Below, in pieces: positions 7,680 to 64,000 of a stretch of DNA of 64,000 nucleotides. Within the stretch, counting starts at the first letter, position 1; every line of letters starts with the position of its first letter. Below the pieces are notes generated by a model, which was given only the letters and a program-made list of their open reading frames with translations, ran no database searches and was not told where the DNA came from. Location of the stretch: assembly GCA_027923505.1 (NCBI GenBank), contig BROI01000004.1, forward strand, positions 124,001-188,000. The letters are read 5' to 3'. Made by a program: the position numbers and the translations under genes. The stretch is from Mayamaea pseudoterrestris. Taxonomy: Eukaryota.

Positions 7680-7791
7680 AATTAGCTATTGTATATTACT
7701 AACTGCAATGTTCATAAGAATGACGTATAAGTTTAATTTGATCAAACTGTGACCAAGCTATTATCAAGGAATGATGCATAAGGTACGCACG

Positions 7792-12281: not shown

Positions 12282-12526
12282 ATTTTCTGTTGGAGATATC
12301 CAAAGGTGGCGACACAATGTTGTTAATGATGATGAGCGAAGCGAGGCTTTGCGGCTCTCGTGGATGGCGCGGATGAAGTTTTCAGCGAGCGACGACGCAA
12401 TCGAATTCCGTGGACTGTCGCTCGATACCGGTACGACTTAACGTGAAACCACAAACTCGTGTAACTCCTGCGACCATGACGACGATCACGCATTTATTTG
12501 CAGTCCAACTGGTGTAAACCCTTACC

Positions 12527-23230: not shown

Positions 23231-25294
23231 TTAGCTTTTATTTTGGAACGCTAGCATCGGGACAGGGTAAATGTCAGACGGAAACGTCGTTTGTAGAGTT
23301 TCCTTGACAAGAACAAGTCCAGCTTGCATCGCAATTGACTTCAAGTAGGACACTGATCGTGTGACAGAAGCATCTTGTACGTCAAGCACAAAATCTTCAG
23401 TAACGCAAGTATTTTCTTTGACGCAAATGTAGCCGCCATTGACAAGCGCCGACGCGCATCGCTGCAGGAAACGAATGGCGTCCTGATCCGTCAGGTAACA
23501 AAGCACCCATTGTATCCAAATCAGCGAATACACCGCAGAAGCCGGTTCCCAGTCTTGCAGTCCGCAGCAATAAAAGCGACACTTGCCGGCGTCATCACCA
23601 ATGTAGTCGGGCGCCGCCGAAATGAGACGCGACGACGACTCCACAAGGTCGCATCGCGGAACACCAAGAGGCAGCAGCAAACCTTTGGTGACGCGGCCAA
23701 TGCCAGCGCCGCACTCACATGCTGCTCCAGTAGACCACTCGAATGAAGCCAGCGATTGCAGCTCCTGAATGAACTGGAGCGAGCCTTTCAAGTCAGATTC
23801 GGAGATTTCAGCAAATCCGCCCAAGACGCCATCCAGAGACGCATCGCAGTGTTCTTCGTAGTAGTCGGCGGCACGATGATACCAGTCGGATGAGTCATTA
23901 CCGTAGACACCTTGCGACTCCCACATTTCTTGAGTTGATTCGTACGACCTGCCATGAGTGTCTGATCCGCGATAATCTTTTAGCGAGAAATCATCGCTTG
24001 CTGTATTCAAACGTTTATCAGAACCAAGCTCAAACTCGTACTCCATCGTGTGCGTATATCGAGGATCGTCTGGCGTCAGGATTTTGCACTTGCCTTTATA
24101 AAACTCGAAATGTGCAGCAGCATCGACCAAGATTGAATCAGGAAAGGACTGCGTCTCCAAACAAACGCCCTGCCACTGTCGGTAGACTGCGTTGTCTTTA
24201 CACAGACCCGGGCCCACGGAAACTCCATCCAAATAGTTTGCCGTGTAAAGCTGAACACCAGGAGCGTCGGATCGTACAGTGAGCCGTCGCTGGGATGCCT
24301 CGTGTTCCAAAATGCCAACGACTGACAAACATTCATTTTCGCCTGGAGTAACAATAATGTAATTGTGATCAAACCCATACGGCGTTCCGGCAGACGCACT
24401 ACCAGATCCAGAAACTGCAATGTCAGGAGCTACTCGCGACTTTGAAAAATTGTCGTTCGCCTCGACTTTGCTCAACGCCGCCTTTGCATGCCCATAATCA
24501 ACAAGAGCATTGCGCATCAGCCGACGTTTGGTCCAGTCCATGGCTGGATCGTCAGCAACGTCAACAACCTCACGTGTCGGTATGCCGGAAGCGTCAATGG
24601 GAGTGTAGGAGTTTGCGTACAGTTTTAGTTTGTGGTCAAGAACACCTTGTGGATCATCATGACGAGCAAGGTTCAGGTAGACATGCTGTGCGAGGTTAAC
24701 TGGAGTTGGGCAACTGTTTGCCTGCTGAGTAGCATCCATCTCTAGTCGCAATTTAGCTCCATTGTCGGTCGCTTGGAGCGAATATGTTGCAGTCACTAAA
24801 AGGGCGCCAGGATAGTGTTGATCCATGTTTGGCGATACGAGTGAGAATCGGACAGCAGTAGCAGCCTTGCCATCTTGCCCCTCTACTGATATCATTTGCG
24901 CATCCCAAATGCAATAACCGAATCCTTTTATTCCTCCATGCAAATGGTTCGGATCATTGTTGATTTCCAATTGAATGATTGGAGCATTGTCGTTGAGCTT
25001 CAATTCTCCCTTTCGTATTCGATTGGCAACTCGACCGACGATGCATCCAAAGTAGGCTGGATTGCCAGAATGCCAAGCGTCCAGAGGCGTCTTGTATCCC
25101 AATACAATGTCATCAAATTTGTTTGCATTGGCAGATGGAAGCAGTATATGCGTCACGGAAGCCCCGAGGGACGAAAGTTTGACGCAAACGCCATTTTCGA
25201 GGGATAGCGAAAAGGTTTGAATCGATTGCTCGACACCAGTGTCCTTGTCGGTCACTAAATATGAATCGCCTTGTATGGGTGCAGCAAAAGGCAT
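23231..25294 (-). CDS. Fusion: aldose 1-epimerase (mutarotase) + alpha-N-terminal protein methyltransferase (NTMT1/Tae1-like)
   Basis: GRVANRI, NHLHGG, NLAQHVYLNL, GFDHNY, GVQLYTAN, CLETQ then GVLGG, ECGAGIGRVTK.LL, IWIQW..YLTD, VKEN, DASVTRS, FP.DIYPV in one 687-aa ORF. Confidence 0.9.
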   Translation of the reverse strand: MPFAAPIQGDSYLVTDKDTGVEQSIQTFSLSLENGVCVKLSSLGASVTHILLPSANANKFDDIVLGYKTPLDAWHSGNPAYFGCIVGRVANRIRKGELKLNDNAPIIQLEINNDPNHLHGGIKGFGYCIWDAQMISVEGQDGKAATAVRFSLVSPNMDQHYPGALLVTATYSLQATDNGAKLRLEMDATQQANSCPTPVNLAQHVYLNLARHDDPQGVLDHKLKLYANSYTPIDASGIPTREVVDVADDPAMDWTKRRLMRNALVDYGHAKAALSKVEANDNFSKSRVAPDIAVSGSGSASAGTPYGFDHNYIIVTPGENECLSVVGILEHEASQRRLTVRSDAPGVQLYTANYLDGVSVGPGLCKDNAVYRQWQGVCLETQSFPDSILVDAAAHFEFYKGKCKILTPDDPRYTHTMEYEFELGSDKRLNTASDDFSLKDYRGSDTHGRSYESTQEMWESQGVYGNDSSDWYHRAADYYEEHCDASLDGVLGGFAEISESDLKGSLQFIQELQSLASFEWSTGAACECGAGIGRVTKGLLLPLGVPRCDLVESSSRLISAAPDYIGDDAGKCRFYCCGLQDWEPASAVYSLIWIQWVLCYLTDQDAIRFLQRCASALVNGGYICVKENTCVTEDFVLDVQDASVTRSVSYLKSIAMQAGLVLVKETLQTTFPSDIYPVPMLAFQNKS

Positions 25295-27431: not shown

Positions 27432-28926
27432 CTATGGTGAAATTGAGAATGATGCTGCGATTGGAAGATGGTCGGATGGCTCGTCTTTATTTGGACAAGG
27501 AGCATCGCACAAAAAGTCCATTACAGCGTATGGCTTTACGACTGCCGAGCAGTACATGCGATCATACCGCGACTGAAAGAGGCCAACATCAGGTAGAGGT
27601 TCGCCGAGAACGGCCATGTCGTATGCAATGCCCCAGAATTTGCCTTGGCGTAGTTCAGCCTGATATACGTTGACGAATCCATCGTAGTTGAGGACACCGT
27701 CTTGCGGAAGCTTGATTCTATCCTTGGCGGCGTCGGATCCTCCTTTCCCGTCGCTCTTTCCATCGTCCTTCCAGCCCATTTGTTTAGCAGCCTCTCGGAA
27801 CTCGCTTCCGCGCCCAAGCTGTCCATTAATCTTGATGAGCCATCCTTCCACATCCTCAACGCTCATTACTTTCTCGCCCAATGGCGACACTGTCGTGGCC
27901 ATTCGGTCATGAATTCTCCGCAGTCTCTCCAGCATGCTCACCGACAGCTTGGGATTCTCGTAGCTCGTTCCGTCGCCTGATTCTACCATGGTCGAAATGA
28001 GTTCACTCACCACCAGTGTCGCGGGAGGCTCGCGATGAGTGACGGTCGCCATGACGTCGACGAGTGGCTGTTCCAGTCGCAATTCTTTCCGACTCGACAC
28101 GACGGGTTCACCATCCTCCAAAAAGGTTTCGTCCAGTTTCCTATCCTCGAGTAGGCGCACGGCTCCGCATTCAAGACCACCGTTAAAGTCTCCGCATACA
28201 ATGACGGGAATATTCTCGGGCTTTTCTTCTATATAAGAGTGTTGACGATCGATATGGGTGAGTACATCTGATCGTATCAACATGTAGCAGCAACCATCTC
28301 GCATACGCACCTCTTCGCTTCTTGGCAAGGTTCACGACGGCCCCAATGCCTTCAATAAGCTGTCGCACCCGTCGCTTTCCTTCCTTGCCCGCTTGCAAGT
28401 GGCAGTTTAACACATACAAGGTCTTGTCGCATTGTTTCGTTTGACGCGTCGTCTCATCTTCATTGATTGCTGCTGCCAATGACTCCTTTACTTGAAAGGC
28501 TGTCAGCAGCGTCCGGTCCTTGTGCACGGGCGGCGACACCAGCTCGAGCTTGTCACGCTTCCAAAACGTGGCGGGCCGAAACCGTCCCCGCTTGAACATT
28601 TCGCAGTCGTATCCAAGCTCCGTCATGAATCTAAAGTCGTCTTGAAACGACACTGGAGCGACTTCCTGAAGACAGACTACATCGGCGTTGATGGTTTGCA
28701 TGCGCTGCTGCAGCAAGTCTCTGCGATGCCCCCACTGGGAAATATGCAACTGCTCCTCCGACAGTGGAGGCGAGTACATTTTGTAGTTCCACCATCCATC
28801 AATCGAGTTTGGCAGCAAAACGTTGTAGCTCAAGACGGAAACGTGCCATGCTGCTGCTGCAACGTCAGAAGAAGGAGGTGCAGGAAAGCAGGTTGGTCCA
28901 ATCAGATGCTGGACTGGCTGAAGCAT
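27432..28926 (-). CDS. Endonuclease/exonuclease/phosphatase (CCR4/nocturnin-like) with EF-hand-like insert, 2 exons
   Basis: LSYNVL, ADVVCLQEV, LNCHL, IVCGDFN, YDRMY, EPSDHLPIAA; intron ~28231-28310. Confidence 0.88.
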
Positions 28927-29219
28927 GGCTTGCTGTTAATTTCTGGATACCGTAGATACCGGAAGATGCGTTTTGATGGAAATGTGTTTGCTTGCCTTTT
29001 GTGGATGCAGTTTGCTTTTTGCTCATCGTCAACTCGAAAAGAAGCAGATGTCGTTTTCAAAACCGCTTCATTCCGCTGCGACACAAACACGCGACGAGAC
29101 TTCCAGCTTGGCCATGGGCGTCCACCACCCGTCCATTTCCGCACGACATATTCACGTCAAGAGCAATTGAGGGTCTCTAGGTTCGTCGCTGACATCCCAA
29201 TAAATATTTAACAATCAGC

Positions 29220-40205: not shown

Positions 40206-41945
40206 CTACTTTCCTCCGCCCGGAGCATCGACACAGCCACATTCAAGTTCCAACCCCAGCCTAATCCTCGCGACGGCCGGAACATGTCGCCGCAGCTTCA
40301 CTCCAGCCAAGGTGAACATGATGCGGCTCGCCCGGCATGCATCTGTGTCATGATAAAAGTCATGCACGTAAACTACCTCGCGGACTCCTGCCTGGACAGT
40401 CACTTTTGCACATTCGTTACACGGAAAAAGAGCAACAAACAAGGTGGCTCCCCGAACATCGGCGCTGCCCTTATTCAAAATGGCATTCATTTCAGCGTGA
40501 CAGACGTAGGGATACTTGCAGTGCAAACTGTTAGTTGCGTGACGCGCCCATGGCAAGTCATCGTCAGAGCAACCAGATGGAAATCCATTGTAGCCAAGGC
40601 CAATAATGCGCTTTTGGTCGTCTACAAGGCAGGCGCCCACTTGTGTGTTGGGATCCTTGGAGCGCTGGGCTGTCAGGACGGCCATGCTGGTAAAGTAGTC
40701 GTCCCATGACAATACGTTGGGGCGTCGCGTTGGCGGGTGCAGGAGCGGATCATAGTTGGCTTCACGCAGTAGCAGTTGGCGATGCGACTCGTCAATCGTA
40801 GTCGACGTGGAAAGCCGTCTAAGCTGTGTCACTCGCTCATTTACGCTTAATTCGTCGATGGACGCGGCATTCGTCGCAACTCCCTCTTCGTCACCAACAG
40901 CAATCGTGCTTTGACGCATGTCCACCAGATCCAAGTCGATCATTGGCCGGCTCGGCTTAAGTTGAATCATCTCAACGCCAGCAAGGCTCAGCAGGATGCG
41001 ACTTGCTCGCAAACTTGTCCTCGCATCGTCATATTCACCGTCATCACAATTGCTTCCACCATTTGCATCATGACAACACTCTTTGCCCGACTCGCTATAT
41101 AATATTTTGCGTATTCGACTTTGGATAATCATCTTGGCGCAATCATGGCACGGAAAGCGCTGGCAGTAGAGGCGGCAATTTGCAACGTCGGCCGAGCACT
41201 TGTTCAGAATGGCATTCACTTCTGCATGCACGACAAACATTGATGGAGGCAGTCGCATTGACACTGACGATTCTTTGCTCGCATCATCTGACGTTGTTGT
41301 AGTTTTCCACGGCAATAAATCGTCACTGCAGCCGCGAGGAAACCCATTATAGCCGATCCCAACAATTCGCTGTCTTTCATCCACAATACATGCTCCGGTT
41401 GGGGTAACTGGATCCTTGGATCGCATGGCCGATAGTGCTGCGACTGCCATAAAGTAGTCGTCCCATGACAAGTAGTCTTTACGTTTTCGTATGACTGCTT
41501 TCAAGTCTGGAGAGTTGGATTGACTAGTCGCACTAGCTGCAGTAGCAGTTTCTTGGCGTGGCTCGGCACTGCCGTCGAGAGATGGCCCCGTCTCCAACTT
41601 TGTGGCACCAGTAGCTTCTTTCATCATTGACGACTTTGACGTCAAATATTTCGCTTCATTCCAAAGAACTGAATCAATTTGTTGCTGCGATAGTGGGTAA
41701 ACCGACCCACCGGACAACGTTTGACACGGCAATGAGAGCATTGAAATGGATGACGGCGACTCGGCGCAACATGGAGCCTCCTTCAGAGAAGCCAATGATA
41801 CGGGAATTGTTGAACTTTTTGTAATATTCATTGATGCTTGCGTATCCGCCGTTTCTTTGGTTTGTTTAAAGCGTTTCGTTATAGAATTCATCGGGACGGA
41901 CGAAGAGGTTTCCGTTTCATTCAAAGTAGTCATCGACGTCTCCAA
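40206..41945 (-). CDS. DCTD: dCMP deaminase with two tandem catalytic domains
   Basis: Two copies of LSWDDYF...RSKDP...GAC.V...GYNGFP.GCSDD..PW...HAE.NAILNK...FPC..CAK. Confidence 0.92.
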   Translation of the reverse strand: METSMTTLNETETSSSVPMNSITKRFKQTKETADTQASMNITKSSTIPVSLASLKEAPCCAESPSSISMLSLPCQTLSGGSVYPLSQQQIDSVLWNEAKYLTSKSSMMKEATGATKLETGPSLDGSAEPRQETATAASATSQSNSPDLKAVIRKRKDYLSWDDYFMAVAALSAMRSKDPVTPTGACIVDERQRIVGIGYNGFPRGCSDDLLPWKTTTTSDDASKESSVSMRLPPSMFVVHAEVNAILNKCSADVANCRLYCQRFPCHDCAKMIIQSRIRKILYSESGKECCHDANGGSNCDDGEYDDARTSLRASRILLSLAGVEMIQLKPSRPMIDLDLVDMRQSTIAVGDEEGVATNAASIDELSVNERVTQLRRLSTSTTIDESHRQLLLREANYDPLLHPPTRRPNVLSWDDYFTSMAVLTAQRSKDPNTQVGACLVDDQKRIIGLGYNGFPSGCSDDDLPWARHATNSLHCKYPYVCHAEMNAILNKGSADVRGATLFVALFPCNECAKVTVQAGVREVVYVHDFYHDTDACRASRIMFTLAGVKLRRHVPAVARIRLGLELECGCVDAPGGGK

Positions 41946-47748: not shown

Positions 47749-49335
47749 ATGTCCATTCTTCTCGTCGACCCAAATCAGCATCGAGACCATACCTTACGGA
47801 TCATACGTCTCCCCAAGACAATGACGCTCACGGCTGGTCGGAGAGCAGTTACAATCAATGCATCAGCAATTTATACGAGAAAGCTTCATCATGTAAAGGG
47901 ACCTCCAATCCAAGCAACTCTATCGTCGTCGTCTCATTCATCCGCCGTCACGTCAGTCACCTTTTCACATGTGAATTTCCAAACCGGTAGCAAGTTAGCA
48001 CAAAGGCGAACTTTCTTTACTCGAATACAATCGGTTGTTCGAACTATACTAGTTGGCGACGACTTTGAGAATCCCAAAAAGTTGCTCGAGCGACAGTATA
48101 TTTACTTGTCCTTGCTAGCACTTGAGTATCGACGCCTTTGTCGACTTGCATCTGCGAACTCACTGTCAACAAACCAATTAGCGCATGACCAAGACAAGGA
48201 TGCGCTATACGAAGCTGCTATTGAGAAACTTGACGAAAGGAGGCTAGACGAAATGTCAAATGAACGATTGCGCATTGAGTTGCAGGACGCCATTCATCCG
48301 CAAGTTGTCGAAATCATTCATACCTTTCGTCAAGTTGATTCGAAATTATTTCCGTGTACTAATACCCAACTCAACCATTCGAACGGCTTGGATCCTTTTT
48401 GGGGAATGGACTCGGGGTCCTTTATCGCTATTTTGGAGCAAGAACTTGCCGACTTGCAAGACCAAATGGCTACCGCTACGGACTCATGCTCGCCCTCGTT
48501 GACAGGCTTCCTGACCACCAAGCAAGAGGCCATTACTTTGCTACTCCTCTTCCTCACTAGAGGAGAAACGCAAGCACATCGGAATGACCCTTTTGGTAAC
48601 GATACGTCCACTCTTGCGCCATCGAGTCTACAGCTCATGCGCAAGTATCAAACTATTAACCTGGTTCGGTCCGCTTGTATTCGCCGTCGAATTGGTTACT
48701 CCATCTTGTCGTTGCGATCATCCATTCCAAATGCTGGTCGAGGAGTCTTCGTGGATGGAAGTGCCCTGACAGGATCGATTGTTTCATTCCAGCCTGGAGA
48801 TGCTTGGCCAAAGGAGCATCTGCTGACTACAGCACCGGAGGTGATGGCACATTTTGCCGAGGAGGATGAACATTGCTTCATTTCGCTTCGGTTCGATGAC
48901 TTTATCATCGATTCGAGGCAATCACCAGTAACTGTACTAGTTGGAAACGCAAGTGGATGCAATCCGTGGGCGCTCGGTCACATGGTGAACCATCCCTTGC
49001 ACAAAACACGGCCTAATTGTTTAACGACCATGATTGATTTTTCGGAACGAATGTTCCATGACCTGGAGTCGGACGCAGCAGGCGAATGTCAGTCACACGC
49101 TTACATGAAATACTTACCCAACGCGTACGCAAGGCAGCCAAGTTGGAAGAGTCGGGCATTCTACAATGAGCCCATTGTCATGCACGGTCTGTGCTTGGTT
49201 GCCCGTCGCGACATTTGCGACGAAGAACTATTTTACGATTATCGACTGCAATCCAACGAGACACCTGACTGGTACAGTGTGGCCGATTCGGGAATTATGG
49301 AACAGGAGCAAGTGGTTTTCTTTCGTGACGATTGA
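47749..49335 (+). CDS. SET-domain-containing protein
   Basis: SSIPNAGRGVF, ALGHMVNHP, ARRDI..EELFYDY; start uncertain. Confidence 0.8.
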   Translation: MSILLVDPNQHRDHTLRIIRLPKTMTLTAGRRAVTINASAIYTRKLHHVKGPPIQATLSSSSHSSAVTSVTFSHVNFQTGSKLAQRRTFFTRIQSVVRTILVGDDFENPKKLLERQYIYLSLLALEYRRLCRLASANSLSTNQLAHDQDKDALYEAAIEKLDERRLDEMSNERLRIELQDAIHPQVVEIIHTFRQVDSKLFPCTNTQLNHSNGLDPFWGMDSGSFIAILEQELADLQDQMATATDSCSPSLTGFLTTKQEAITLLLLFLTRGETQAHRNDPFGNDTSTLAPSSLQLMRKYQTINLVRSACIRRRIGYSILSLRSSIPNAGRGVFVDGSALTGSIVSFQPGDAWPKEHLLTTAPEVMAHFAEEDEHCFISLRFDDFIIDSRQSPVTVLVGNASGCNPWALGHMVNHPLHKTRPNCLTTMIDFSERMFHDLESDAAGECQSHAYMKYLPNAYARQPSWKSRAFYNEPIVMHGLCLVARRDICDEELFYDYRLQSNETPDWYSVADSGIMEQEQVVFFRDD

Positions 49336-49435
49336 AAGGAAGATAAATCATAATTTAATGTAATTATGTAGCCGCCTCCACTTGGCGCTGCATACAGTTG
49401 ACTGCTTATAAGTTTACAGTATCACTATATAATGG

Positions 49436-51268
49436 TTACGGGTCCTTGCGAACTGACAAAGGCGCCAACCAACACCAACGGCCGTTGCCGCGAGACATGT
49501 CCTCATCGTCCACGGTCGGATCATGCCAACCTGCAATTTCCTTCCATAGTCGACTCACGGCCGTAAAGGTCGCTGGATCGTAGTTTCGCAATTGACCACA
49601 CGTAAACGGGTAAAACTTGTTGCACATGCGCTGTTCCTTTGTATGAAGAAACATTCTCTGCAGAAACGATTCAATGGGCGAGTGCGTTTTGTGGCTACAA
49701 TTCTTCTCAAAAGACTCAGCATGTTCGGGCATTTGGCCGCGGACCCTTTCAATGACCGTAGGTTCCATCAGTGGCGGCGTACAGCAAAGTAGCTCGGATT
49801 CATTCTCCTGGTCGAGCTCACGATATCCCTTGCTCCAGTATGCAACCGACATCTCGCTAAAAAATTCCTTACAGTCTACCATCGCGTATGCTAAATCACA
49901 ATCCTCGTCCTTTCCTGCCCAGTCTCGTCGACGAACGTTAGCGTATAGACCAGACGCCCGCGCCGTTTCGTACGCCTCCATGACAGGCTTGTTTTCAAGG
50001 CCATCAGCCAGTGCAAACTGATGAATTAGATGGCAGAGTTCATGCAGTACCAAGCCACACCCATTCCAATGCAGCCGCATCCGTCGGTAATCGTAACAAT
50101 TGTAAATTTCTATTTCATACGTCTTGTCGAGACGATCATGCGCCCACGCCAGCCACCCAGGATGATGATGCGCGGTCGTGTGGTTGACAACCATGGGAGA
50201 ATTGCGCGGTCCATACTGATAGGACGAATTCACCCAAACGCGAGTTCGTCGTATCAGGCGGTGCAGATTCCTCGGAAGTAAGTTCAAACAATCCATCAAG
50301 TCGGACTCTAGGTCACCAAGCACTGATGGGCACTGCGAAAAGACATTGGGAGCGCAATAGACTGTCACACCGCACTCAAGTTGCACCGAAAAATATGGAT
50401 TTGTCGAATTGTCAATGATTTCGGTGTATTCGTGCATGCCGTCGCAGAGAATATGCTCATGGTCAAACCGAGGATCCTCATTGGCTTGCATGGCACTCTC
50501 ATCGGGTGATCTCATTTGCGTGAGGTGTTGCATAGCTGCATCCTCAGTGAGCACCGACGACGGAAGGCGAAGGTTGGCAAGTTGTAGCAGACTTTTTTTG
50601 AGACTACCAACTTCACCACCGTCGCCATCTTTGTTGACGTCTATATCTGATTGATCATCATCATCGTCATCGGAGCTGGACGAGTCAAGTATCCCAAATC
50701 GATTCTGCATGGAGACTTGTTGTGGAGCACTTTCATTGTCTGCATCGTCCGACGACGAGATACTTGCGACGTCGTGCTCGCCCTCTCCAGCATTATTGAC
50801 GCCTCCATCTCCATTCTCCACATTTTCTACCTCGAGCTCAACCGTTTCTTTTCTTTCACGTGTTTTTGCAGCATTCTCTCGCATAATTGATGCATGCAAG
50901 GAACAGTTCGCAGCCACGTATCGGTTGGCTTCTGCAATACTTTTTGCTTGTCGAACTCGGACGCCGATCTTGTTATCATCCAACAACCCTTGCTTTCTAC
51001 ACTCCTTCATAATCCAAAGTCGTCGATTGTTCAATGAAATATAGCAAGGCTCGTCTCCGCCATTCTCTGCCGTTCCTGCAATCACTTGCATAGGAGGAAG
51101 ATTGGATGGATGCAGTCTTCCGTCGAGTATAGACTGCAGCGTTTCCTTAAGACTCCGCCCGCAACCTGAAAATACGGGACGAATTCGACTATGCTGAAAC
51201 CGAAGCAGGTCAGGATCCATCAAGACAAGTTCGTCAAGAGTCGTTTTCTTTTGCTTTGATGGTGCCAT
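49436..51268 (-). CDS. ParB/Srx-like N-terminal domain + acidic linker + HExxH zinc-metallopeptidase-like domain
   Basis: LRFQHSRI...F.G.G..L...L..G...P.MQV...YISLNNRRLW; C-terminal LVLHELCH...YA..D.KEFFSEMS.AY...FYPFT..QL..YDP. Confidence 0.75.
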   Translation of the reverse strand: MAPSKQKKTTLDELVLMDPDLLRFQHSRIRPVFSGCGRSLKETLQSILDGRLHPSNLPPMQVIAGTAENGGDEPCYISLNNRRLWIMKECRKQGLLDDNKIGVRVRQAKSIAEANRYVAANCSLHASIMRENAAKTRERKETVELEVENVENGDGGVNNAGEGEHDVASISSSDDADNESAPQQVSMQNRFGILDSSSSDDDDDDQSDIDVNKDGDGGEVGSLKKSLLQLANLRLPSSVLTEDAAMQHLTQMRSPDESAMQANEDPRFDHEHILCDGMHEYTEIIDNSTNPYFSVQLECGVTVYCAPNVFSQCPSVLGDLESDLMDCLNLLPRNLHRLIRRTRVWVNSSYQYGPRNSPMVVNHTTAHHHPGWLAWAHDRLDKTYEIEIYNCYDYRRMRLHWNGCGLVLHELCHLIHQFALADGLENKPVMEAYETARASGLYANVRRRDWAGKDEDCDLAYAMVDCKEFFSEMSVAYWSKGYRELDQENESELLCCTPPLMEPTVIERVRGQMPEHAESFEKNCSHKTHSPIESFLQRMFLHTKEQRMCNKFYPFTCGQLRNYDPATFTAVSRLWKEIAGWHDPTVDDEDMSRGNGRWCWLAPLSVRKDP

Positions 51269-51547
51269 GGTGGCGGATAGCGGTGTCCAAGAATGGATCG
51301 TGCCAATTCTCAACGATACATGCGTCGAAATTCGTTTAATGAATAATGAATAAGAAACGATTTGAGTCTAGCAGGTGTAGCTTTTATTTCAAATTGTTCC
51401 CATTTCGCTGCAGCGCTTCCTGGTTGGCTTCTCAAGTCCCTCGTCGAAATCTCGCATGTATCGATGTTGTTGCCTTGATGCGATTTCATTCTTCTTGTCG
51501 TACCGGTACAAACTACGACGCGCAAGTACGCCCCGTCGTAGCCCCGT

Positions 51548-52461
51548 CATCTGCCTGCCAGTAGAAGGTGCCACTGGAGCACCACTTTACCATCCTATGA
51601 GCACCTGCATGCAAAATTTTGTCCCATGTGTTCATTTGGCGTGGTAAACCCCTCCATGGCATCCAAGAAGCGCAGTGACGGCGAGAAGGAAGCACCTTCC
51701 AAGCGCCGGTAGAAGGGCCATCGGCCTAGAAGGCGCCACTGGTGCACCAATGGAGCATCCAATGAGCACCTGCATGGCCAAACCCTTGTCCTGTATGTTC
51801 ATTTGGCGTGGTGAAACCCCTCCATGGCATCTGTGTAGCTCCGTGACGACGAAAAGGAAAAATCTTCTGAACTCCCCTTGAAGGGCCTTTGGCCTAGAAG
51901 GCGCCACTGGTGCACCAATGGAGCATCCTATGATTAACTGCATGGCCAAACCCTTGCTTGTATGTTCATTTGGCGTGGCGAAACCCCTCCATGGCATCCG
52001 CGTAGCTCAGTGATGGCGAGAAGGAAAATCTATCTGAGCGCCAGTTGAAAAGCCATCTGCCTAGAAGGCGCCACTGGTGCACCAATGGAGCATCCTATGA
52101 GCACCTGCATGGCCAAACCCTTGTCCCATATGTTCATTTGGTGTGGTGAAAACCATCCACGGCATCCAAGTAGCTCAGTGGAAGCGAGAAGGAAAAGCCT
52201 TCTGAGTGCCCCTTGAAGGGCCATCTGCCTAGAAGGCGCCACTGGTGCACCAATGGAGCATCCAATGAGCACCTGCATGGCCAAACCCTTGTCCCATATG
52301 TTCATTTGGCGTGGTGAAACCCCTACATGGCATTCAAGTAGCTCAGTGACGGTGAGAAGGAAAATCCTTCTGAGCGCCAGTTGAAGGGCCATCTGTCTCG
52401 AAGACACCACTGGTGCACCAATGGAGCATTAAATGAGCACCTGCATGGCCAAACCTTTGGT
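51548..52461. repeat. Satellite A: ~168-bp tandem repeat, ~5.5 diverged copies
   Basis: CTAGAAGGCGCCACTGGTGCACCAATGGAGCATCC (degenerate in the outer copies) recurs at 51561, 51726, 51894, 52061, 52229, 52397. Confidence 0.93.
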
Positions 52462-54751
52462 CCAAGCCTACCATCTTGTAGCGCAGCCTGAATAATGATG
52501 TTGGCACCATTCTGGTGTATTTTGGGCACCTACAGGGCTTGCTGTAGGGGCGTTTGAATGTCACGGCATCGGCAGGCTGAGACTGGTGACAAGTTGTCAC
52601 CAAATACATTGCCATCCCCTGAGACACCATCCAAGCCTACCATCTTGTAGCTCAGCCTAAACAATAATGTTGGCACCATTCTGGTGTATGTTGGGCACCT
52701 ACAGGGCTTGCTGTAGGGGCGTTTGAATGTCACGACATCTGCGGGCTGAGACAGGTGACAAGTTGTCACCAAATACATTGCCATCTCCTGAACACCAGCC
52801 AAGCCTACCATGTTGTAGCGCAGCCTGATTAATGATGTTGGCACCATTCTGGTGTATTTTAGGCACCTACAGGGCTTGCTGTAGGGGCGTTTGAATGTCA
52901 CGGCATCGGCAGGCTGAGACTGGTGACAAGTTGTCACCAAATACAATGCCATCCCCTGAGACACCAGCCAAGCCTACCATCTTGTAGCGCAGCCTTAAAA
53001 ATAATGTTGGCACCATTCTGGTGTATTTTGGGCACCTACAGGGCTTGCTGTAGGGGCATTTGAATGTCACGGCATCTGCGGGCTGAGACTGGTGACAAGT
53101 TGTCACCAAATACATTGCCATGCCCTGAGACACCAGCCAAGACTGCCATCTTGTAGCGCAGCCTGATTAATGATGTTGGCACCATTTGGGTGTATTTTGG
53201 GCACCTACAGGGCTTGCTGTAGGGGCGTTTGAATGTCACAGCATCTGCGGGCTGAGACTGGTGACAAGTTGTCACCAAATACATTGCCATCCCCTGAGAC
53301 ACCAGCCAAGCATACCATCTTGTAGCGCAGCCTGATTAATGTTGTTGGTACCATTTGGGAGTATTTTGGGCACCTACAGGGCTTGCTGTAGGGGCGTTTG
53401 AATGTCACGGCATCTGCGGGCTGAGACTGGTGACAAGTTGTCACCAAATACATTGCCATCCCCTGAGACACCAGCCAAGACTACCATCTTGTAGCGCAGC
53501 CTGATTAATGATGTTGGCACCATTCTGGTGTATTTTGGGCACCTACAGGGCTTGCTGTAGGGGCGTTTGAATGTCACGGCATCGGCAGGCTGAGACTGGT
53601 GACAAGTTGTCACCAAATACAATGCCATCCCCTGAGACACCAGCCAAGCCTACCATCTTGTAGCGCAGCCTTAAAAATAATGTTGGCACCATTCTGGTGT
53701 ATTTTGGGCACCTACAGGGCTTGCTGTAGGGGCATTTGAATGTCACGGCATCTGCGGGCTGAGACTGGTGACAAGTTGTCACCAAATACATTGCCATGCC
53801 CTGAGACACCAGCCAAGACTGCCATCTTGTAGCGCAGCCTGATTAATGATGTTGGCACCATTTGGGTGTATTTTGGGCACCTACAGGGCTTGCTGTAGGG
53901 GCGTTTGAATGTCAAAGCATCTGCGGGCTGAGACTGGTGACAAGTTGTCACCAAATACATTGCCATCCCCTGAGACACCAGCCAAGCATACCATCTTGTA
54001 GCGCAGCCTGATTAATGTTGTTGGTACCATTTGGGAGTATTTTGGGCACCTACAGGGCTTGCTGTAGGGGCGTTTGAATGTCACGGCATCTGCAGGCTGA
54101 GACTGGTGACAAGTTGTCACCAAATACATTGCCATCCCCTGAGACACCAGCCAAGACTACCATCTTGTAACGCAGCCTGATTAATGATGTTGGCACCATT
54201 TGGGAGTATTTTGGGCACCTACAGGGCTTGCTGTAGGGGCGTTTGAATGTAACAGCATCTGCGGGCTGAGACTGGTGACAAGTTGTCACCAAATACATTG
54301 CCATCCCCTGAGACACCAGCCAAGCCTACCATGTTGTAGCGCATCCTGAATAAGGATTAGGGACCATTCTTATGTATTTTGGGCACCTACAGGGCTTGTT
54401 GTAGGGGCGTTTGAATGTCACGGCATCTGTGGGCTAAGACTGGTGACAAGTTGTCACCAAATACATTGCCATCCCCTGAGACACCAGCCAAGCATACCAT
54501 CTTGTAGCGCAGCCGGAATAAGGATGTTGGCACCATTTGGGAGTATTTTGGGCACCTACAGGGCTTGCTGTAGGGGCATTTGAATGTCACGGCATCTGCA
54601 GGCTGAGACTGGTGACAAGTTGTCACCGAATACATTGCCATCCCCTGAGACACCAGTCAAGCCAACTATCTTGTAGCGCAGCCGGAATAAGGATGTTGGC
54701 ACCATTCTGGTGTATTTTAGGCACCTACAGGGCTTGCTGTAGGGGCGTTTG
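52462..54751. repeat. Satellite B: 169-bp tandem repeat, ~13.5 copies, with 676-bp 4-mer higher-order repeat
   Basis: CCAAGCCTACCATCTTGTAGCGCAGCC-type starts at 52462, 52631, 52799, 52968 ... 54657; variants recur at 676-bp spacing. Confidence 0.95.
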
Positions 54752-57700
54752 TGACCTTGGATCATGCCCCAAGCCACTTTACAAAGAGATTGTGGGGATC
54801 TGATGTTTGCCACTGCTAGGGTAGGCAGTCACATAGTACCTGCTAACTGAAGCTGCTGACCTGAAGGCAAAAGGCAAGCAGAAGGCTGATGCGCAAAACA
54901 AATTACCAAGAAGGTATGTCTTGTGCCCTCGGATCATGCACAGTGGCTGTACGCATAGAGTGTGTGGGCACTTCATGTTTGCCACTGCTAGGTTGGTGTT
55001 CGGCAGTTGGGTAGTACATACCAGCAACTTCTGCGGATCTGGAAGCAGGCAACATGCAGGAGGCAAATGCACAAAGATAATGCGCTATACAATATCCATT
55101 TGTGACCTTGGATCATGCCCCAAGCCAGTTTACAAAGAGATTGTGGGGATCTGATGTTTGCCACTGCTAGGGTAGGCAGTCACATAGTACCTGCTAACTG
55201 AAGCTGCTGACCTGAAGGCAAAAGGCAAGCAGGAGGCTGATGCGCAAAACAAATTCACCAAGAAGGTTTGTCTTGTGCCCTCGGATCATGCACAGTGGCT
55301 GTACGCATAGAGTGTGGGGCACTTCATGTTTGCCACTGCTAGGTTGGTGTTTGGCAGTTGGGTAGTACATACCACTTCTGCGGATCTGGAAGCAGGCAAC
55401 ATGCAGGAGGCAAATGCACAAAGTGAATGCACTATACAATATCCATTTGTGACCTTGGATCATGCCCCAAGCCAGTTTACAAAGAGATTGTGGGGATCTG
55501 ATGTTTGCCACTGCTAGGGTAGGCAGTCACATAGTACCTGCTAACTGAAGCTGCTGACCTGAAGGCAAAAGGCAAGCAGGAGGCTGATGCGCAAAACAAA
55601 TTCACCAAGGAGGTATGTCTTGTGCCCTCGGATCATGCACAGTGGCTGTACGCATAGAGTGTGTGGGCACTTCATGTTTGGCACTGCTAGGTTGGTGTTC
55701 GGCAGTTGGGTAGTACATACCAGCAACTTCTGCGGATCTGGAAGCAGGCAACATGCAGGAGGCAAATGCACAAAGTGAATGCACTATACAATATCCATTT
55801 GTGACCTTGGATCATGCCCCAAGCCAGTTTACAAAGAGATTGTGGGGATCTGATGTTTGCCACTGCTAGGGTAGGCAGTCACATAGTACCTGCTAACTGA
55901 AGCTGCTGACCTGAAGGCAATAGGCAAGCAGGAGGCTGATGCGCAAAACAAATTCACCAAGGAGGTATGCCTTGTGCCCTTGGATCATGCACAGTAGCTG
56001 TACGCATAGAGTGTGTGGGCACTTCATGTTTGCCACTGCTAGGTTGGTGTTCGGCAGTTGGGTAGTACATACCAGCAACTTCTGCGGATCTGGAAGCAGG
56101 CAACATGCAGGAGGCAGATGCACAAAGTGAATGCACTATACAATATCCATTTGTGACCTTGGATCATGCCCCAAGCCAGTTTACAAAGAGATTGTGGGGA
56201 TCTGATGTTTGCCACTGCTAGGGTAGGCAGTCACATAGTACCTGCTAACTGAAGCTGCTGACCTGAAGGCAAAAGGCAAGCAGGAGGCTGATGCGCAAAA
56301 CAAATTCACCAAGGAGGTATGTCTTGTGCCCTTGGATCATGCTCTGTGGCTGTACGCATAGAGTGTGTGGGCACTTCATGTTTGCCACTGCTAGGTTGGT
56401 GTTCGGCAGTTGGGTAGTACATACCAGCAACTTCTGCAGATCTGGAAGCAGGCAACATGCAGGAGGCAAATGCACAAAGTGAATGCACTATACAATATCC
56501 ATTTGTGACCTTGGATCATGCCCCAAGCCAGTTTACAAAGAGATTGTGGGGATCTGATGTTTGCCACTGCTAGGGTAGGCAGTCACATAGTACCTGCTAA
56601 TTGAAGCTGCTGACCTGAAGGCAAAAGGCAAGCAGGAGGCTGATGCGCAAAACAAATTCACCAAGAAGGTATGTCTTGTGCCCTCGGATCATGCACAGTG
56701 GCTGTACGCATAGAGTGTGTGGGCACTTCATGTTTGCCACTGCTAGGTTGGTGTTCGGCAGTGGTGGTTGGTGTACATACCAGCAAGTGAAGCAGGCACC
56801 ATGCAGGAGGCAAATGCACAAAGTGAATGCACTATACAATATCAATTTGTGATCTTGGATCATGCCCCAAGCCAGTTTACAAAGAGATTGTGGGAATCTG
56901 GTGTTTGCCACTGCTAGGGTAGGCAGTCACATAGTACCTGCTAACTGAAGCTGCTGACCTGGACGCAAAAGGCAAGCAGGAGGCTGATGCGCAAAACAAA
57001 TTCACCAAGGAGGTATGTCTTGTGCCCTTGGATCATGCACAGTGGCTGTACGCATAGAGTGTGTGGGCACTTCATGTTTGCCACTGCTAGGTTGGTGTTC
57101 GGCAGTTGGGTAGTACATACCAGCAACTTCTGCGGATCTGGAAGCAGGCAACATGCAGGAGGCAAATGCACAAAGTGAATGCACTATACAATATCCATTT
57201 GTGACCTTGGATCATGCCCCAAGCCAGTTTACAAAGAGATTGTGGGGATCTGATGTTTGCCACTGCTAGGGTAGGCAGTCACATAGTACCTGCTAAATGA
57301 AGCTGCTGACCTGAAGGCAAATGGCAAGCAGGAGGCTGATGCGCAAAACAAATTCACCAAGGAGGTGTGTCTTGTGCCCTCAGATCATGCACAGTGGCTG
57401 TACGCATAGAGTGTGTGGGCACTTCATGTTTGCCACTGCTAGGTTGGTGTTCGGCAGTTGGGTAGAACATACCAGCAACTTCTGCGGATCTGGAAGCAGG
57501 CAACATGCAGGAGGCAAATGCACAAAGTGAATGCACTATACAATATCCATTTGTGACCTTGGATCATGCCCCAAGCCAGTTTACAAAGAGATTGTGGGGA
57601 TCTGATGTTTGCCACTGCTAGGGTAGGCAGTCACATAGTACCTGCTAACTGAAGCTGCTGACCTGAAGGCAAAGGGCAAGCAGGAGGCTGATGCGCAAAA

Positions 57701-60700
57701 CAAATTCACCAAGGAGGTATGTCTTGTGCCCTCGGATCATGCACAGTGGCTGTACGCATAGAGTGTGTGGGCACTTCATGTTTGCCACTGCTAGGTTGGT
57801 GTTCGGCAGTTGGGTAGTACATACCAGCAACTTCTGCGGATCTGGAAGCAGGCAACATGCAGGAGGCAAATGCACAAAGTGAATGCACTATACAATATCC
57901 ATTTGTGACCTTGGATCATGCCCCAAGCCAGTTTACAAAGAGATTGTGGGGATCTGATGTTTGCCACTGCTAGGGTAGGCAGTCACATAGTACCTGCTAA
58001 CTGAAGCTGCTGACCTGAAGGCAAAAGGCAAGCAGGAGGCTGATGCGCAAAACAAATTCACCAAGGAGGTATGTCTTGTGCCCTTGGATCATGCACAGTG
58101 GCTGTACGCATAGAGTGTGTGGGCACTTCATGTTTGCCACTGCTAGGTTGGTGTTCGGCAGTTGGGTAGTACATACCAGCAACTTCTGTGGATCTGGAAG
58201 CAGGCAACATGCAGGAGGCAAATGCACAAAGTGAATGCACTATACAATATCCATTTGTGACCTTGGATCATGCCCCAAGCCAGTTTACAAAGAGATTGTG
58301 GGGATCTGATGTTTGCCACTGCTAGGGTAGGCAGTCACATAGTACCTGCTAACTGAAGCTGCTGACCTGAAGGCAAAAGGCAAGCAGGAGGCTGATGCGC
58401 AAAACAAATTCACCAAGGAGGTATGTCTTGTGCCCTCGGATCATGCACAGTGGCTGTACGCATAGAGTGTGTGGGCACTTCATGTTTGCCACTGCTAGGT
58501 TGGTGTTCGGCAGTTGGGTAGTACATACCAGCAACTTCTGCGGATCTGGAAGCAGGCAACATGCAGGAGGCAAATGCACAAAGTGAATGCACTATACAAT
58601 ATCCATTTGTGACCTTGGATCATGCCCCAAGCCAGTTTACAAAGAGATTGTGGGGATCTGATGTTTGCCACTGCTAGGGTAGGCAGTCACATAGTACCTG
58701 CTAACTGAAGCTGCTGACCTGAAGGCAAAAGGCAAGCAGGAGGCTGATGCGCAAAACAAATTCACCAAGGAGGTATGTCTTGTGCCCTCGGATCATGCAC
58801 AGTGGCTGTACGCATAGAGTGTGTGGGCACTTCATGTTTGCCACTGCTAGGTTGGTGTTCGGCAGTTGGGTAGTACATACCAGCAACTTCTGCGGATCTG
58901 GAAGCAGGCAACATGCAGGAGGCAAATGCACAAAGTGAATGCACTATACAATATCCATTTGTGACCTTGGATCATGCCCCAAGCCAGTTTACAAAGAGAT
59001 TGTGGGGATCTGATGTTTGCCACTGCTAGGGTAGGCAGTCACATAGTACCTGCTAACTGAAGCTGCTGACCTGAAGGCAAAAGGCAAGCAGGAGGCTGAT
59101 GCGCAAAACAAATTCACCAAGGAGGTATGTCTTGTGCCCTCGGATCATGCACAGTGGCTGTACGCATAGAGTGTGTGGGCACTTCATGTTTGCCACTGCT
59201 AGGTTGGTGTTCGGCAGTTGGGTAGTACATACCAGCAACTTCTGCGGATCTGGAAGCAGGCAACATGCAGGAGGCAAATGCACAAAGTGAATGCACTATA
59301 CAATATCCATTTGTGACCTTGGATCATGCCCCAAGCCAGTTTACAAAGAGATTGTGGGGATCTGATGTTTGCCACTGCTAGGGTAGGCAGTCACATAGTA
59401 CCTGCTAACTGAAGCTGCTGACCTGAAGGCAAAAGGCAAGCAGGAGGCTGATGCGCAAAACAAATTCACCAAGGAGGTATGTCTTGTGCCCTCGGATCAT
59501 GCACAGTGGCTGTACGCATAGAGTGTGTGGGCACTTCATGTTTGCCACTGCTAGGTTGGTGTTCGGCAGTTGGGTAGTACATACCAGCAACTTCTGCGGA
59601 TCTGGAAGCAGGCAACATGCAGGAGGCAAATGCACAAAGTGAATGCACTATACAATATCCATTTGTGACCTTGGATCATGCCCCAAGCCAGTTTACAAAG
59701 AGATTGTGGGGATCTGATGTTTGCCACTGCTAGGGTAGGCAGTCACATAGTACCTGCTAACTGAAGCTGCTGACCTGAAGGCAAAAGGCAAGCAGGAGGC
59801 TGATGCGCAAAACAAATTCACCAAGGAGGTATGTCTTGTGCCCTCGGATCATGCACAGTGGCTGTACGCATAGAGTGTGTGGGCACTTCATGTTTGCCAC
59901 TGCTAGGTTGGTGTTCGGCAGTTGGGTAGTACATACCAGCAACTTCTGCGGATCTGGAAGCAGGCAACATGCAGGAGGCAAATGCACAAAGTGAATGCAC
60001 TATACAATATCCATTTGTGACCTTGGATCATGCCCCAAGCCAGTTTACAAAGAGATTGTGGGGATCTGATGTTTGCCACTGCTAGGGTAGGCAGTCACAT
60101 AGTACCTGCTAACTGAAGCTGCTGACCTGAAGGCAAAAGGCAAGCAGGAGGCTGATGCGCAAAACAAATTCACCAAGGAGGTATGTCTTGTGCCCTCGGA
60201 TCATGCACAGTGGCTGTACGCATAGAGTGTGTGGGCACTTCATGTTTGCCACTGCTAGGTTGGTGTTCGGCAGTTGGGTAGTACATACCAGCAACTTCTG
60301 CGGATCTGGAAGCAGGCAACATGCAGGAGGCAAATGCACAAAGTGAATGCACTATACAATATCCATTTGTGACCTTGGATCATGCCCCAAGCCAGTTTAC
60401 AAAGAGATTGTGGGGATCTGATGTTTGCCACTGCTAGGGTAGGCAGTCACATAGTACCTGCTAACTGAAGCTGCTGACCTGAAGGCAAAAGGCAAGCAGG
60501 AGGCTGATGCGCAAAACAAATTCACCAAGGAGGTATGTCTTGTGCCCTCGGATCATGCACAGTGGCTGTACGCATAGAGTGTGTGGGCACTTCATGTTTG
60601 CCACTGCTAGGTTGGTGTTCGGCAGTTGGGTAGTACATACCAGCAACTTCTGCGGATCTGGAAGCAGGCAACATGCAGGAGGCAAATGCACAAAGTGAAT

Positions 60701-63700
60701 GCACTATACAATATCCATTTGTGACCTTGGATCATGCCCCAAGCCAGTTTACAAAGAGATTGTGGGGATCTGATGTTTGCCACTGCTAGGGTAGGCAGTC
60801 ACATAGTACCTGCTAACTGAAGCTGCTGACCTGAAGGCAAAAGGCAAGCAGGAGGCTGATGCGCAAAACAAATTCACCAAGGAGGTATGTCTTGTGCCCT
60901 CGGATCATGCACAGTGGCTGTACGCATAGAGTGTGTGGGCACTTCATGTTTGCCACTGCTAGGTTGGTGTTCGGCAGTTGGGTAGTACATACCAGCAACT
61001 TCTGCGGATCTGGAAGCAGGCAACATGCAGGAGGCAAATGCACAAAGTGAATGCACTATACAATATCCATTTGTGACCTTGGATCATGCCCCAAGCCAGT
61101 TTACAAAGAGATTGTGGGGATCTGATGTTTGCCACTGCTAGGGTAGGCAGTCACATAGTACCTGCTAACTGAAGCTGCTGACCTGAAGGCAAAAGGCAAG
61201 CAGGAGGCTGATGCGCAAAACAAATTCACCAAGGAGGTATGTCTTGTGCCCTCGGATCATGCACAGTGGCTGTACGCATAGAGTGTGTGGGCACTTCATG
61301 TTTGCCACTGCTAGGTTGGTGTTCGGCAGTTGGGTAGTACATACCAGCAACTTCTGCGGATCTGGAAGCAGGCAACATGCAGGAGGCAAATGCACAAAGT
61401 GAATGCACTATACAATATCCATTTGTGACCTTGGATCATGCCCCAAGCCAGTTTACAAAGAGATTGTGGGGATCTGATGTTTGCCACTGCTAGGGTAGGC
61501 AGTCACATAGTACCTGCTAACTGAAGCTGCTGACCTGAAGGCAAAAGGCAAGCAGGAGGCTGATGCGCAAAACAAATTCACCAAGGAGGTATGTCTTGTG
61601 CCCTCGGATCATGCACAGTGGCTGTACGCATAGAGTGTGTGGGCACTTCATGTTTGCCACTGCTAGGTTGGTGTTCGGCAGTTGGGTAGTACATACCAGC
61701 AACTTCTGCGGATCTGGAAGCAGGCAACATGCAGGAGGCAAATGCACAAAGTGAATGCACTATACAATATCCATTTGTGACCTTGGATCATGCCCCAAGC
61801 CAGTTTACAAAGAGATTGTGGGGATCTGATGTTTGCCACTGCTAGGGTAGGCAGTCACATAGTACCTGCTAACTGAAGCTGCTGACCTGAAGGCAAAAGG
61901 CAAGCAGGAGGCTGATGCGCAAAACAAATTCACCAAGGAGGTATGTCTTGTGCCCTCGGATCATGCACAGTGGCTGTACGCATAGAGTGTGTGGGCACTT
62001 CATGTTTGCCACTGCTAGGTTGGTGTTCGGCAGTTGGGTAGTACATACCAGCAACTTCTGCGGATCTGGAAGCAGGCAACATGCAGGAGGCAAATGCACA
62101 AAGTGAATGCACTATACAATATCCATTTGTGACCTTGGATCATGCCCCAAGCCAGTTTACAAAGAGATTGTGGGGATCTGATGTTTGCCACTGCTAGGGT
62201 AGGCAGTCACATAGTACCTGCTAACTGAAGCTGCTGACCTGAAGGCAAAAGGCAAGCAGGAGGCTGATGCGCAAAACAAATTCACCAAGGAGGTATGTCT
62301 TGTGCCCTCGGATCATGCACAGTGGCTGTACGCATAGAGTGTGTGGGCACTTCATGTTTGCCACTGCTAGGTTGGTGTTCGGCAGTTGGGTAGTACATAC
62401 CAGCAACTTCTGCGGATCTGGAAGCAGGCAACATGCAGGAGGCAAATGCACAAAGTGAATGCACTATACAATATCCATTTGTGACCTTGGATCATGCCCC
62501 AAGCCAGTTTACAAAGAGATTGTGGGGATCTGATGTTTGCCACTGCTAGGGTAGGCAGTCACAGAACCTGCTAACTGAAGCGGCTGGGGGGGGAAACCTG
62601 AAGGCAAAAGGCAAGCAGGAGGCTGATGCGCAAAACAAATTCACCAAGGAGGTATGTCTTGTGCCCTCGGATCATGCACAGTGGCTGTACGCATAGAGTG
62701 TGTGGGCACTTCATGTTTGCCACTGCTAGGTTGGTGTTCGGCAGTTGGGTAGTACATACCAGCAACTTCTGCGGATCTGGAAGCAGGCAACATGCAGGAG
62801 GCAAATGCACAAAGTGAATGCACTATACAATATCCATTTGTGACCTTGGATCATGCCCCAAGCCAGTTTACAAAGAGATTGTGGGGATCTGATGTTTGCC
62901 ACTGCTAGGGTAGGCAGTCACATAGTACCTGCTAACTGAAGCTGCTGACCTGAAGGCAAAAGGCAAGCAGGAGGCTGATGCGCAAAACAAATTCACCAAG
63001 GAGGTATGTCTTGTGCCCTTGGATCATGCACAGTGGCTGTACGCATAGAGTGTGTGGGCACTTCATGTTTGCCACTGCTAGGTTGGTGTTCGGCAGTTGG
63101 GTAGTACATACCAGCAACTTCTGCGGATCTGGAAGCAGGCAACATGCAGGAGGCAAATGCACAAAGTGAATGCACTATACAATATCCATTTGTGACCTTG
63201 GATCATGCCCCAAGCCAGTTTACAAAGAGATTGTGGGGATCTGATGTTTGCCACTGCTAGGGTAGGCAGTCACATAGTACCTGCTAAAGAAGCTGCTGAC
63301 CTGAAGGCAAAAGGCAAGCAGGAGGCTGATGCGCAAAACAAATTCACCAAGGAGGTACGTCTTGTGCCCTCTGATCATGCACAGTGGCTGTACGCATAGA
63401 GTGTGTGGGCACTTCATGTTTGCCACTGCTAGGTTGGTGTTCGGCAGTTGGGTAGTACATACCAGCAACTTCTGCGGATCTGGAAGCAGGCAACATGCAG
63501 GAGGCAAATGCACAAAGTGAATGCACTATACAATATCCATTTGTGACCTTGGATCATGCCCCAAGCCAGTTTACAAAGAGATTGTGGGGATCTGATGTTT
63601 GCCACTGCTAGGGTAGGCAGTCACATCGTACCTGCTAACTGAAGCTGCTGACCTGATGGCAAGAGGCAAGCAGGAGGCTGATGCGCAAAACAAATTCACC

Positions 63701-64000
63701 AAGGAGGTATGTCTTGTGCCCTTGGATCATGCACAGTGGCTGTACGCATAAGTTTTGTGTGGGCACTTCATGTTTGCCACTGCTAGGTTGGTGTTCGGCA
63801 GTTGGGTAGTACATACCAGCAACTTCTGCGGATCTGGAAGCAGGCAACATGCAGGAGGCAAATGCACAAAGTGAATGCACTATACAATATCCATTTGTGA
63901 CCTTGGATCATGCCCCAAGCCAGTTTACAAAGAGATTGTGGGGATCTGATGTTTGCCACTGCTAGGGTAGGCAGTCACATAGTACCTGCTAAAGAAGCTG
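54748..64000. repeat. Satellite C: 352-bp tandem repeat (173+179 dimer), >=26 copies, continues past window end
   Basis: TTTGTGACCTTGGATCATGCCCCAAGCC recurs every 352 bp; identical ORF translations at 352-bp steps. Confidence 0.97.

Follow-up and report, generated by a model that had tools for sequence, protein, structure and literature searches.

Three stacked satellite families at the probable edge of a constitutive heterochromatin block in the diatom Mayamaea pseudoterrestris

Tandem arrays of nucleosome-sized monomers are best known from the satellite centromeres of plants and primates, such as those built on the 178-bp repeat of Arabidopsis or on human alpha satellite with its higher-order repeats and flanking older layers. 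Layered satellites are familiar also from chromosome ends, as in the telomere-associated repeat elements of Plasmodium, the subtelomeric satellites of potato and tomato, and the subtelomeric arrays of Chlamydomonas. The subject of the present study is a block of three tandem families, here called satellites A, B and C, that occupies the right-hand part (51.5-64 kb) of a 64,000-nucleotide stretch of DNA from the diatom Mayamaea pseudoterrestris (contig BROI01000004.1, positions 124,001 to 188,000). The whole stretch is referred to as the window, and all coordinates are counted from its first letter. Diatom centromeres are described in other terms. Those of Phaeodactylum tricornutum, mapped by chromatin immunoprecipitation, are short, low in guanine plus cytosine (GC) and without repeats, and 500 bp are enough for episome maintenance, according to the available portion of 10.1101/096016. 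Predicted centromeres exist for Thalassiosira pseudonana and Fistulifera solaris, those of F. solaris cited in the accessible text of 10.1101/2021.11.10.468027 being ~1.4-2 kb long with 36-42% GC. Stramenopile satellites are represented by PpSat1 and PpSat2 of Phytophthora parasitica, which are homogeneous and have predicted secondary structure, and for which the part of PMC7290008 at hand leaves the role between centromeric, telomere-associated and none.

The block in M. pseudoterrestris resembles the centromeres of the three diatoms in lineage and in its place between ordinary genes of a compact genome, but it differs from them in being a tandem repeat of at least 12.4 kb with 49-55% GC. The low-GC (at least 500 bp), box-rich and repeat-free composition of the Phaeodactylum type is not found in the arrays, whose GC is 0.49-0.55. 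With the satellite centromeres of plants and primates the block shares nucleosome-sized monomers, dimeric and multimeric higher-order units, very high copy number and CpG decay, together with a homogenised stretch amid diverged copies and unrelated older arrays. Unlike them it is not AT-rich, it lacks a transposon-rich pericentromere and has a conserved gene ~200-250 bp from the array, and its family C, though long at this locus, is less abundant genome-wide than B. Layered subtelomeric blocks have in common with it the stacking of unrelated tandem families without spacer, units of 160-360 bp and an abrupt boundary with gene space, whereas neither a telomeric repeat nor a telomere-like motif is present in the window, which ends within C. 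The comparison with PpSat1 and PpSat2 extends to stramenopile origin, high homogeneity and predicted secondary structure, a kinship of the sequences themselves not being expected; as far as described in the available text of PMC7290008, PpSat2 sits in gene-rich regions, while PpSat1 accompanies transposon-rich regions and telomere-like repeats, and the window shows neither of these.

Based on the evidence collected here, the 51.5-64 kb region is understood, with a probability of roughly 0.8, as the edge of a constitutive satellite heterochromatin block in a diatom nuclear chromosome, lying against a gene-dense and transposon-free arm. Arrays were called with Tandem Repeats Finder (TRF), and units were split at conserved anchors and then aligned. 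Three arrays are stacked in the order A, B and C, all head-to-tail on one strand (Table 1). TRF places A at 51562-52459 (period 168, 5.4 copies, 85% matches), B at 52462-54751 (period 169, 13.6 copies, 92% matches) and C at 54748-64000 (period 352, 26.3 copies, 98% matches; at period 173, 52.6 copies with 63% matches), and the self-match peaks at lags 168 (A), 169 and 676 (B) and 352 (C) agree with these periods. A preliminary description of this DNA had proposed three unrelated-looking families with periods of ~168, 169 and 2x~176 bp, stacked from position 51548 on without spacer, not AT-rich, and with copy number and homogeneity rising inward. All of this is borne out. The first complete A unit is preceded by 8 bases that match the end of an A unit, which makes 51548 the correct start. 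A stops within a unit at 52459 and B begins at 52460-52462, while B and C meet at 54747/54748; the C period of 352 resolves into the two sub-monomers, and the TRF copies grow from A through B to C as given above. The best local alignments of A/B, A/C1, A/C2, B/C1 and B/C2 reach only z = -1.3 to +0.3 (200 shuffles per pair), C1 and C2 being the sub-monomers of C, which are related to each other (z = 21.6, ~63% alike). Consensus GC is 0.554 in A, 0.521 in B and 0.494 in C, against a window mean of 0.494.

Table 1. Positions of the satellite arrays, of features within them and of the neighbouring gene in the window
Feature	Start	End	Strand	Description
Satellite A	51548	52459		5 full units (165-168 bp) and a 62-bp truncated unit; most diverged layer
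Satellite B	52460	54747		13 full units (168-169 bp) and an 82-bp truncated unit; most abundant family genome-wide
19-bp palindrome of B, example copy	52584	52602		TGGTGACAA-G-TTGTCACCA; present in every B unit; from dyad scan
Duplicated four-monomer (676-bp) higher-order block in B	52968	54319		Units B4-B7 and B8-B11; from identity matrix and self-match lag 676
B-to-C junction	54744	54751		B unit cut at about position 82; TTTG (4 bp) common to C unit start; TRF coordinates overlap by 4 bp
Satellite C	54748	64000		26 complete 352-bp dimers (173 + 179 bp sub-monomers) and a partial one; array continues past window end
Homogenised core of C	58254	62477		Dimers 11-22, i.e. 12 consecutive identical 352-bp dimers with 0 variants each
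Last gene before the block	49436	51367	-	Open reading frame, diatom-conserved, no Pfam domain; 5' end towards satellites, ~200-250 bp off

Within the window, homogeneity does increase inward, with pairwise identities of 77-90% among A units and 88-100% among B units, and with C dimers 93.0-100% identical to their consensus. Full B units are 93.5-98.2% identical to the B consensus. The duplicated block of B is apparent from the pairs B4/B8 (100%), B5/B9 (99%), B6/B10 (99%) and B7/B11 (95%), neighbouring units being 93-96% alike. The dimers of C range from 344 to 359 bp, with a mean pairwise identity of 98.1%, and the variants in those near the edges are mostly private. One refinement of the gradient is needed, in that the last four complete C dimers vary again, with 13, 1, 4 and 9 differences from the consensus. 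The first of these, dimer 23, has a cluster of changes (62565-62595) within ~40 bp, including a G8 run and a net gain of 7 bp that brings the unit to 359 bp; either a genuinely mutated copy or a local error of the long-read assembly could account for it. A steady strand asymmetry accompanies C (54001-64000, GC skew +0.11 to +0.14, AT skew +0.03 to +0.07) and is absent from A, B and the flank.

The left 51 kb of the window is intron-poor, gene-dense eukaryotic DNA of ordinary cellular genes and of unique sequence. No direct or inverted repeat of at least 60 bp occurs within 1-51561, and a Pfam scan returned transposon domains in 0 of 38 flank open reading frames (ORFs). The arrays themselves are non-coding: their longest stop-free stretch in any frame is 147 codons, as compared to 579 in a control gene, and a scan of the window returned neither tRNA genes nor any Rfam family that reached its gathering score. 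A coding repeat protein was considered for A, whose 168-bp period is divisible by three, and was rejected on account of units of 165-168 bp and of no frame being open beyond 147 codons. An origin of the units from the flank was likewise rejected, since blastn of the units against 1-51540 gave nothing better than E = 0.22. Analysis of 10-bp WW phasing was dropped, power ratios being uninterpretable in tandem repeats.

The distinction between block and flank extends to their CpG sites. Observed over expected CpG is 0.43 in A, 0.32 in B and 0.22 in C versus 1.11 in the flank, where all 2-kb intervals lie at 0.94-1.25 and the lowest 500-bp interval is at 0.69; TpG/CpA is 1.52-1.70 in the arrays versus 1.19 in the flank. 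As a safeguard against pseudo-replication, CpG was tested on single units with 3,000 flank segments of the same size as reference, and segments as CpG-poor as the single unit or poorer made up 0.1% (A), 0.13% (B) and 0% (C) of them. The substitutions that separate units from their consensus are concentrated at CpG positions, with 13 of 68 in A (2.7-fold over expectation, p 9e-4), 14 of 87 in B (3.4-fold, p 6e-5) and 11 of 55 in C (7-fold, p 4e-7). Loss of CpG with an excess of TpG/CpA and with CpG-focused change is the footprint of 5-methylcytosine deamination. Given CpG depletion and CpG-focused substitution together, we infer that the A, B and C arrays are, or long were, cytosine-methylated and silent chromatin, and that their boundary with the unmethylated-looking gene space would be sharp, falling within ~200 bp.

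The satellites are not confined to this place. Sampled words of 48000-57000 were found in 12 sequencing runs from 6 studies, all of them contigs and none listed as RNA, and the contigs of four runs (X1, X2, X6 and X7) were aligned to 49000-55500. X1 and X2, which come from different studies, had 81,522 of 555,133 and 41,073 of 560,787 records, respectively, matching that interval. Depth over the unique flank is flat, at 117 in X1 and 9.3-10 in X2, the latter run departing from the window sequence at a single position of the flank; the summed depth of the satellite bins is 85,000-5,300,000 in X1 and 1,700-462,000 in X2. Expressed as mean bin depth over flank depth in X1 and X2, this gives 2,389 and 840 for A, 12,757 and 12,161 for B, and 3,072 and 3,843 for C. 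A single-locus oddity, which by the preliminary description would have refuted a centromeric nature, is therefore not what we find, the summed depth of A, B and C exceeding the depth of the single-copy flank by factors of ~840-12,800 in X1 and X2. All three are high-copy, genome-wide families of which the 51.5-64 kb locus has a tiny share of the copies, and B, not C, dominates genome-wide, its depth per place being ~3-4 times that of C.

The scenario proposed for the block is one of growth and turnover. Unequal exchange and gene conversion would expand the arrays and make their copies alike, as indicated by the 676-bp duplication in B, the strict dimer of C and the 12 identical dimers between privately mutated copies. 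The families would have been brought together by illegitimate joins inside monomers, with 0-4 bp of shared sequence, and the older arrays, A and then B, may remain as short relic layers beside the arm, the whole block probably being maintained as methylated heterochromatin.

Several points weigh against this understanding. Methylation is deduced from sequence decay; the 12 identical C dimers could in part be a product of long-read consensus polishing; and the view of the block stops at 64000, inside C. X1 may be the sample from which the window was assembled. Depth summed over contigs does not equal copy number and error-derived contigs of high-copy repeats inflate record counts, so that a crude conversion of depth into megabases gives B 1.6-28 Mb, C 1-3 Mb and A 0.1-2 Mb, with a spread of more than tenfold.

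The chromosomal role of such a block can be read in several ways. Possible, if somewhat doubtful, is a subtelomeric satellite block in which A, B and C occupy the interval from the final genes of the arm to the telomere, homogenised by exchange among chromosome ends. The abrupt switch from conserved single-copy genes to satellites, with neither a transposon zone nor dispersed repeats in between, is consistent with this placement, and so is the stacking of several unrelated families with the most homogeneous one outermost. Weak support could be seen in the G-rich strand of C, which by its GC skew of +0.11 to +0.14 points 5' to 3' away from the genes in the manner of a telomeric G-strand. However, nowhere in the window, which ends inside C, does (TTAGGG)n or (TTTAGGG)n reach even two consecutive units, and the monomers carry no telomere-like motif beyond chance. 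As 0.18-0.82 of shuffles reach the same motif score, a derivation of the monomers from telomeric sequence is unsupported. Descriptions of related organisms cut both ways. The mapped or predicted diatom centromeres in the accessible text of 10.1101/096016 and 10.1101/2021.11.10.468027 are short, low in GC and repeat-free, and oomycete centromeres in the available part of PMC7082073 are transposon-rich, which favours the chromosome end; but a diatom precedent is lacking there too, the subtelomeres of P. tricornutum being described as unique sequences in the portion of PMC9266582 at hand. The upper abundance estimate for B, if right, would moreover demand very large subtelomeric blocks.

For a centromeric role, satellite B merits closer attention. 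In each unit the 19-bp palindrome (Table 1) is preceded, at a distance of 55 bp upstream, by another perfect dyad, CCTACAG-N6-CTGTAGG. The 17-bp core of the palindrome was found 13 times, the B alignment has its two longest stretches without variation, of 17 columns each, at the two dyads, and the 19-column palindrome itself has 2 variable columns, both at its edges. Variable columns crowd the first 60 of 169 (23 of 60 versus 19 of 109 elsewhere). When DNA folds are compared with those of shuffles, z is -3.4 for a two-unit stretch of B, -2.0 for A and -0.06 for C. The dyads are suggestive of a bound protein or of cruciform-prone DNA, which they could reflect in what are 13 related copies only.

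Dyad symmetry and non-B DNA have been proposed for centromeric satellites, and Melters et al. are said to have found in 2013 that the centromeric repeat is frequently the tandem repeat of highest abundance. The two invariant dyads per unit of B, with its fold z of -3.4, and the very high genome-wide abundance would thus suit a satellite-based regional centromere or its edge, with CENH3 nucleosomes on one family and older families pushed outward as relics, and so would the monomers of 168-179 bp, the dimeric and four-monomer units and the age gradient A<B<C. We nonetheless regard such a centromere as an unlikely reading. Higher-order repeats, a homogenised stretch and diverged flanking layers are all present (676-bp B duplication, C dimer, 12 identical dimers, A<B<C identity), but this combination is typical of non-centromeric satellites as well. 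The dominant family B has only 2.3 kb here, whereas the long local array C is without dyads (fold z -0.06), and the flank shows none of the transposon accumulation that is usual, if not obligatory, for a pericentromere. The thin local layer of B and the transposon-free flank count mildly against a centromere with C as its core, neither being decisive. The arrays are, furthermore, not AT-rich. A competing low-GC cluster of the P. tricornutum type is not present in the window, where at most 1 of 30 100-bp boxes has a GC of 32% or less in any 3-kb interval and the minimum 500-bp GC is 0.38 (at 43442), yet the rest of the 1.27-Mb contig could carry a conventional low-GC centromere. The described diatom and stramenopile centromeres that we found are all non-satellite, as far as the available parts of 10.1101/096016, 10.1101/2021.11.10.468027 and PMC7082073 extend. 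That this diatom has satellite-based regional centromeres, with CENH3 putatively on one family, and that the block is a centromere edge recording satellite turnover, seems on balance rather improbable; the candidate CENH3 families would be B, by its genome-wide abundance and two invariant dyads, or C, by its local homogeneity.

An interstitial, knob-like heterochromatic block, made of selfish tandem DNA that is tolerated and silenced between genes and serves neither segregation nor the protection of chromosome ends, would agree with a gene-rich flank that reaches right up to the array and with the methylation-type decay, which points to silencing. A stramenopile precedent exists in the gene-flanked PpSat2 arrays of Phytophthora parasitica described in the accessible text of PMC7290008. 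Megabase-scale abundance and three stacked families suggest large specialised domains over scattered islands, however, and we consider this explanation, too, to be improbable.

An assembly artefact, with satellite reads chimerically joined or collapsed onto the end of a unique contig and perfect dimers arising from polishing, is highly implausible: the 12 identical 352-bp dimers, the clustered complex variant with its G8 run in dimer 23 (~62565-62595) and the lack, among the contigs aligned to 49000-55500, of any independent record bridging the A-to-B or B-to-C joins would fit it, but runs from two separate studies contain all three families at high depth, the genome-wide majority letters at 55263 and 55268, where C dimer 2 deviates, are those of the local consensus, and a 12,380-bp short-read contig of X1 starts in unique DNA and traverses the first A unit (49000-51748) with 0 differences. 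Highly abundant satellites do commonly break or mis-join assemblies, and since X1 may be the source sample of the window, its contig over the unique-to-A join is not independent support. One further X1 contig links position 52546 in B with position 55387 in C, but with no more than 24 letters on the shorter side it is too weak to indicate a second B/C junction.

The edge of a satellite heterochromatin block thus remains the preferred understanding of the locus. Satellite DNA as such is well known, but the A/B/C system is apparently undescribed and new for diatoms. We found no description of nucleosome-sized high-copy satellites or of a satellite centromere in any diatom in the literature searched, which excludes subscription journals and bioRxiv supplements, and the words "satellite", "tandem repeat" and "subtelomer" are all absent from the text of a long-read re-examination of two diatom reference genomes (PMC8147415). 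One B motif and one C motif gave 0 matches in collections of metagenome contigs and of genome contigs. The study has importance in suggesting that a diatom may devote megabases to three satellites with methylation-type decay, sharply bounded from genes, and the block could offer a compact system for heterochromatin boundaries and repeat turnover in stramenopiles. Were the satellites centromeric after all, the design rule of diatom artificial chromosomes that low GC suffices would not be general, centromere architecture would be labile within diatoms, and a natural test would be at hand of satellite DNA as opposed to low GC as the specifier of a diatom centromere.

The satellites also surface in runs that carry other organism labels. 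X6 and X7, from the study of X1, contain them at low depth, and in X6 two short flank contigs are identical to the window at a depth of 2.5-3.6, the B/flank ratio of ~8,400 resembling that of X1. Evidence of satellite conservation in other species was not seen in these runs, as trace carry-over explains them equally well; such carry-over of diatom DNA would be visible because of the copy number of the repeats. The satellites are abundant enough to be a useful marker of it. Four rhizosphere-metagenome runs from four studies (X9-X12) have 5-7% of the sampled 48000-57000 words, from which we draw no claim on habitat or conservation.

The last gene before the block is at the single-copy depth of 117 in X1. 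Its protein has 82 homologues at E<=1e-5, of which the named ones are all diatoms, both centric and pennate (Odontella, Cylindrotheca, Nitzschia, Seminavis, Cyclotella, Leptocylindrus). Most homologues span only ~47% of the protein, and one from Seminavis is named an amino-acid transporter by its source. Elsewhere in the flank, the Pfam-scanned ORFs include FTR1 permease, PGP phosphatase, alpha/beta hydrolase, DnaJ, lipoyl ligase, zf-MYND, TIC20 and CRAL-TRIO, further a vacuolar sorting receptor, an EIPR1-type WD40 protein, an aldose-epimerase/N-terminal-methyltransferase fusion, a double dCMP deaminase and Pumilio. The fusion is a single ORF of 687 amino acids (23231-25294, minus strand) in which aldose 1-epimerase is combined with an N-terminal protein (proline) methyltransferase domain (PF05891). 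Its best non-self match is 62% identical, the named matches being from Amphora, Epithemia, Seminavis, Fragilaria and Thalassiosira; many diatom proteins of comparable length show this fusion too, others having the epimerase alone. The 579-amino-acid ORF at 40206-41945 (minus strand) has two matches to the dCMP/cytidine deaminase zinc-binding domain and looks like a tandem-domain deaminase. On the minus strand at 27432-28935, two overlapping ORFs (27432-28331 and 28183-28935) match different parts of Exo_endo_phos, as if a short intron or a frameshift interrupted a single gene.

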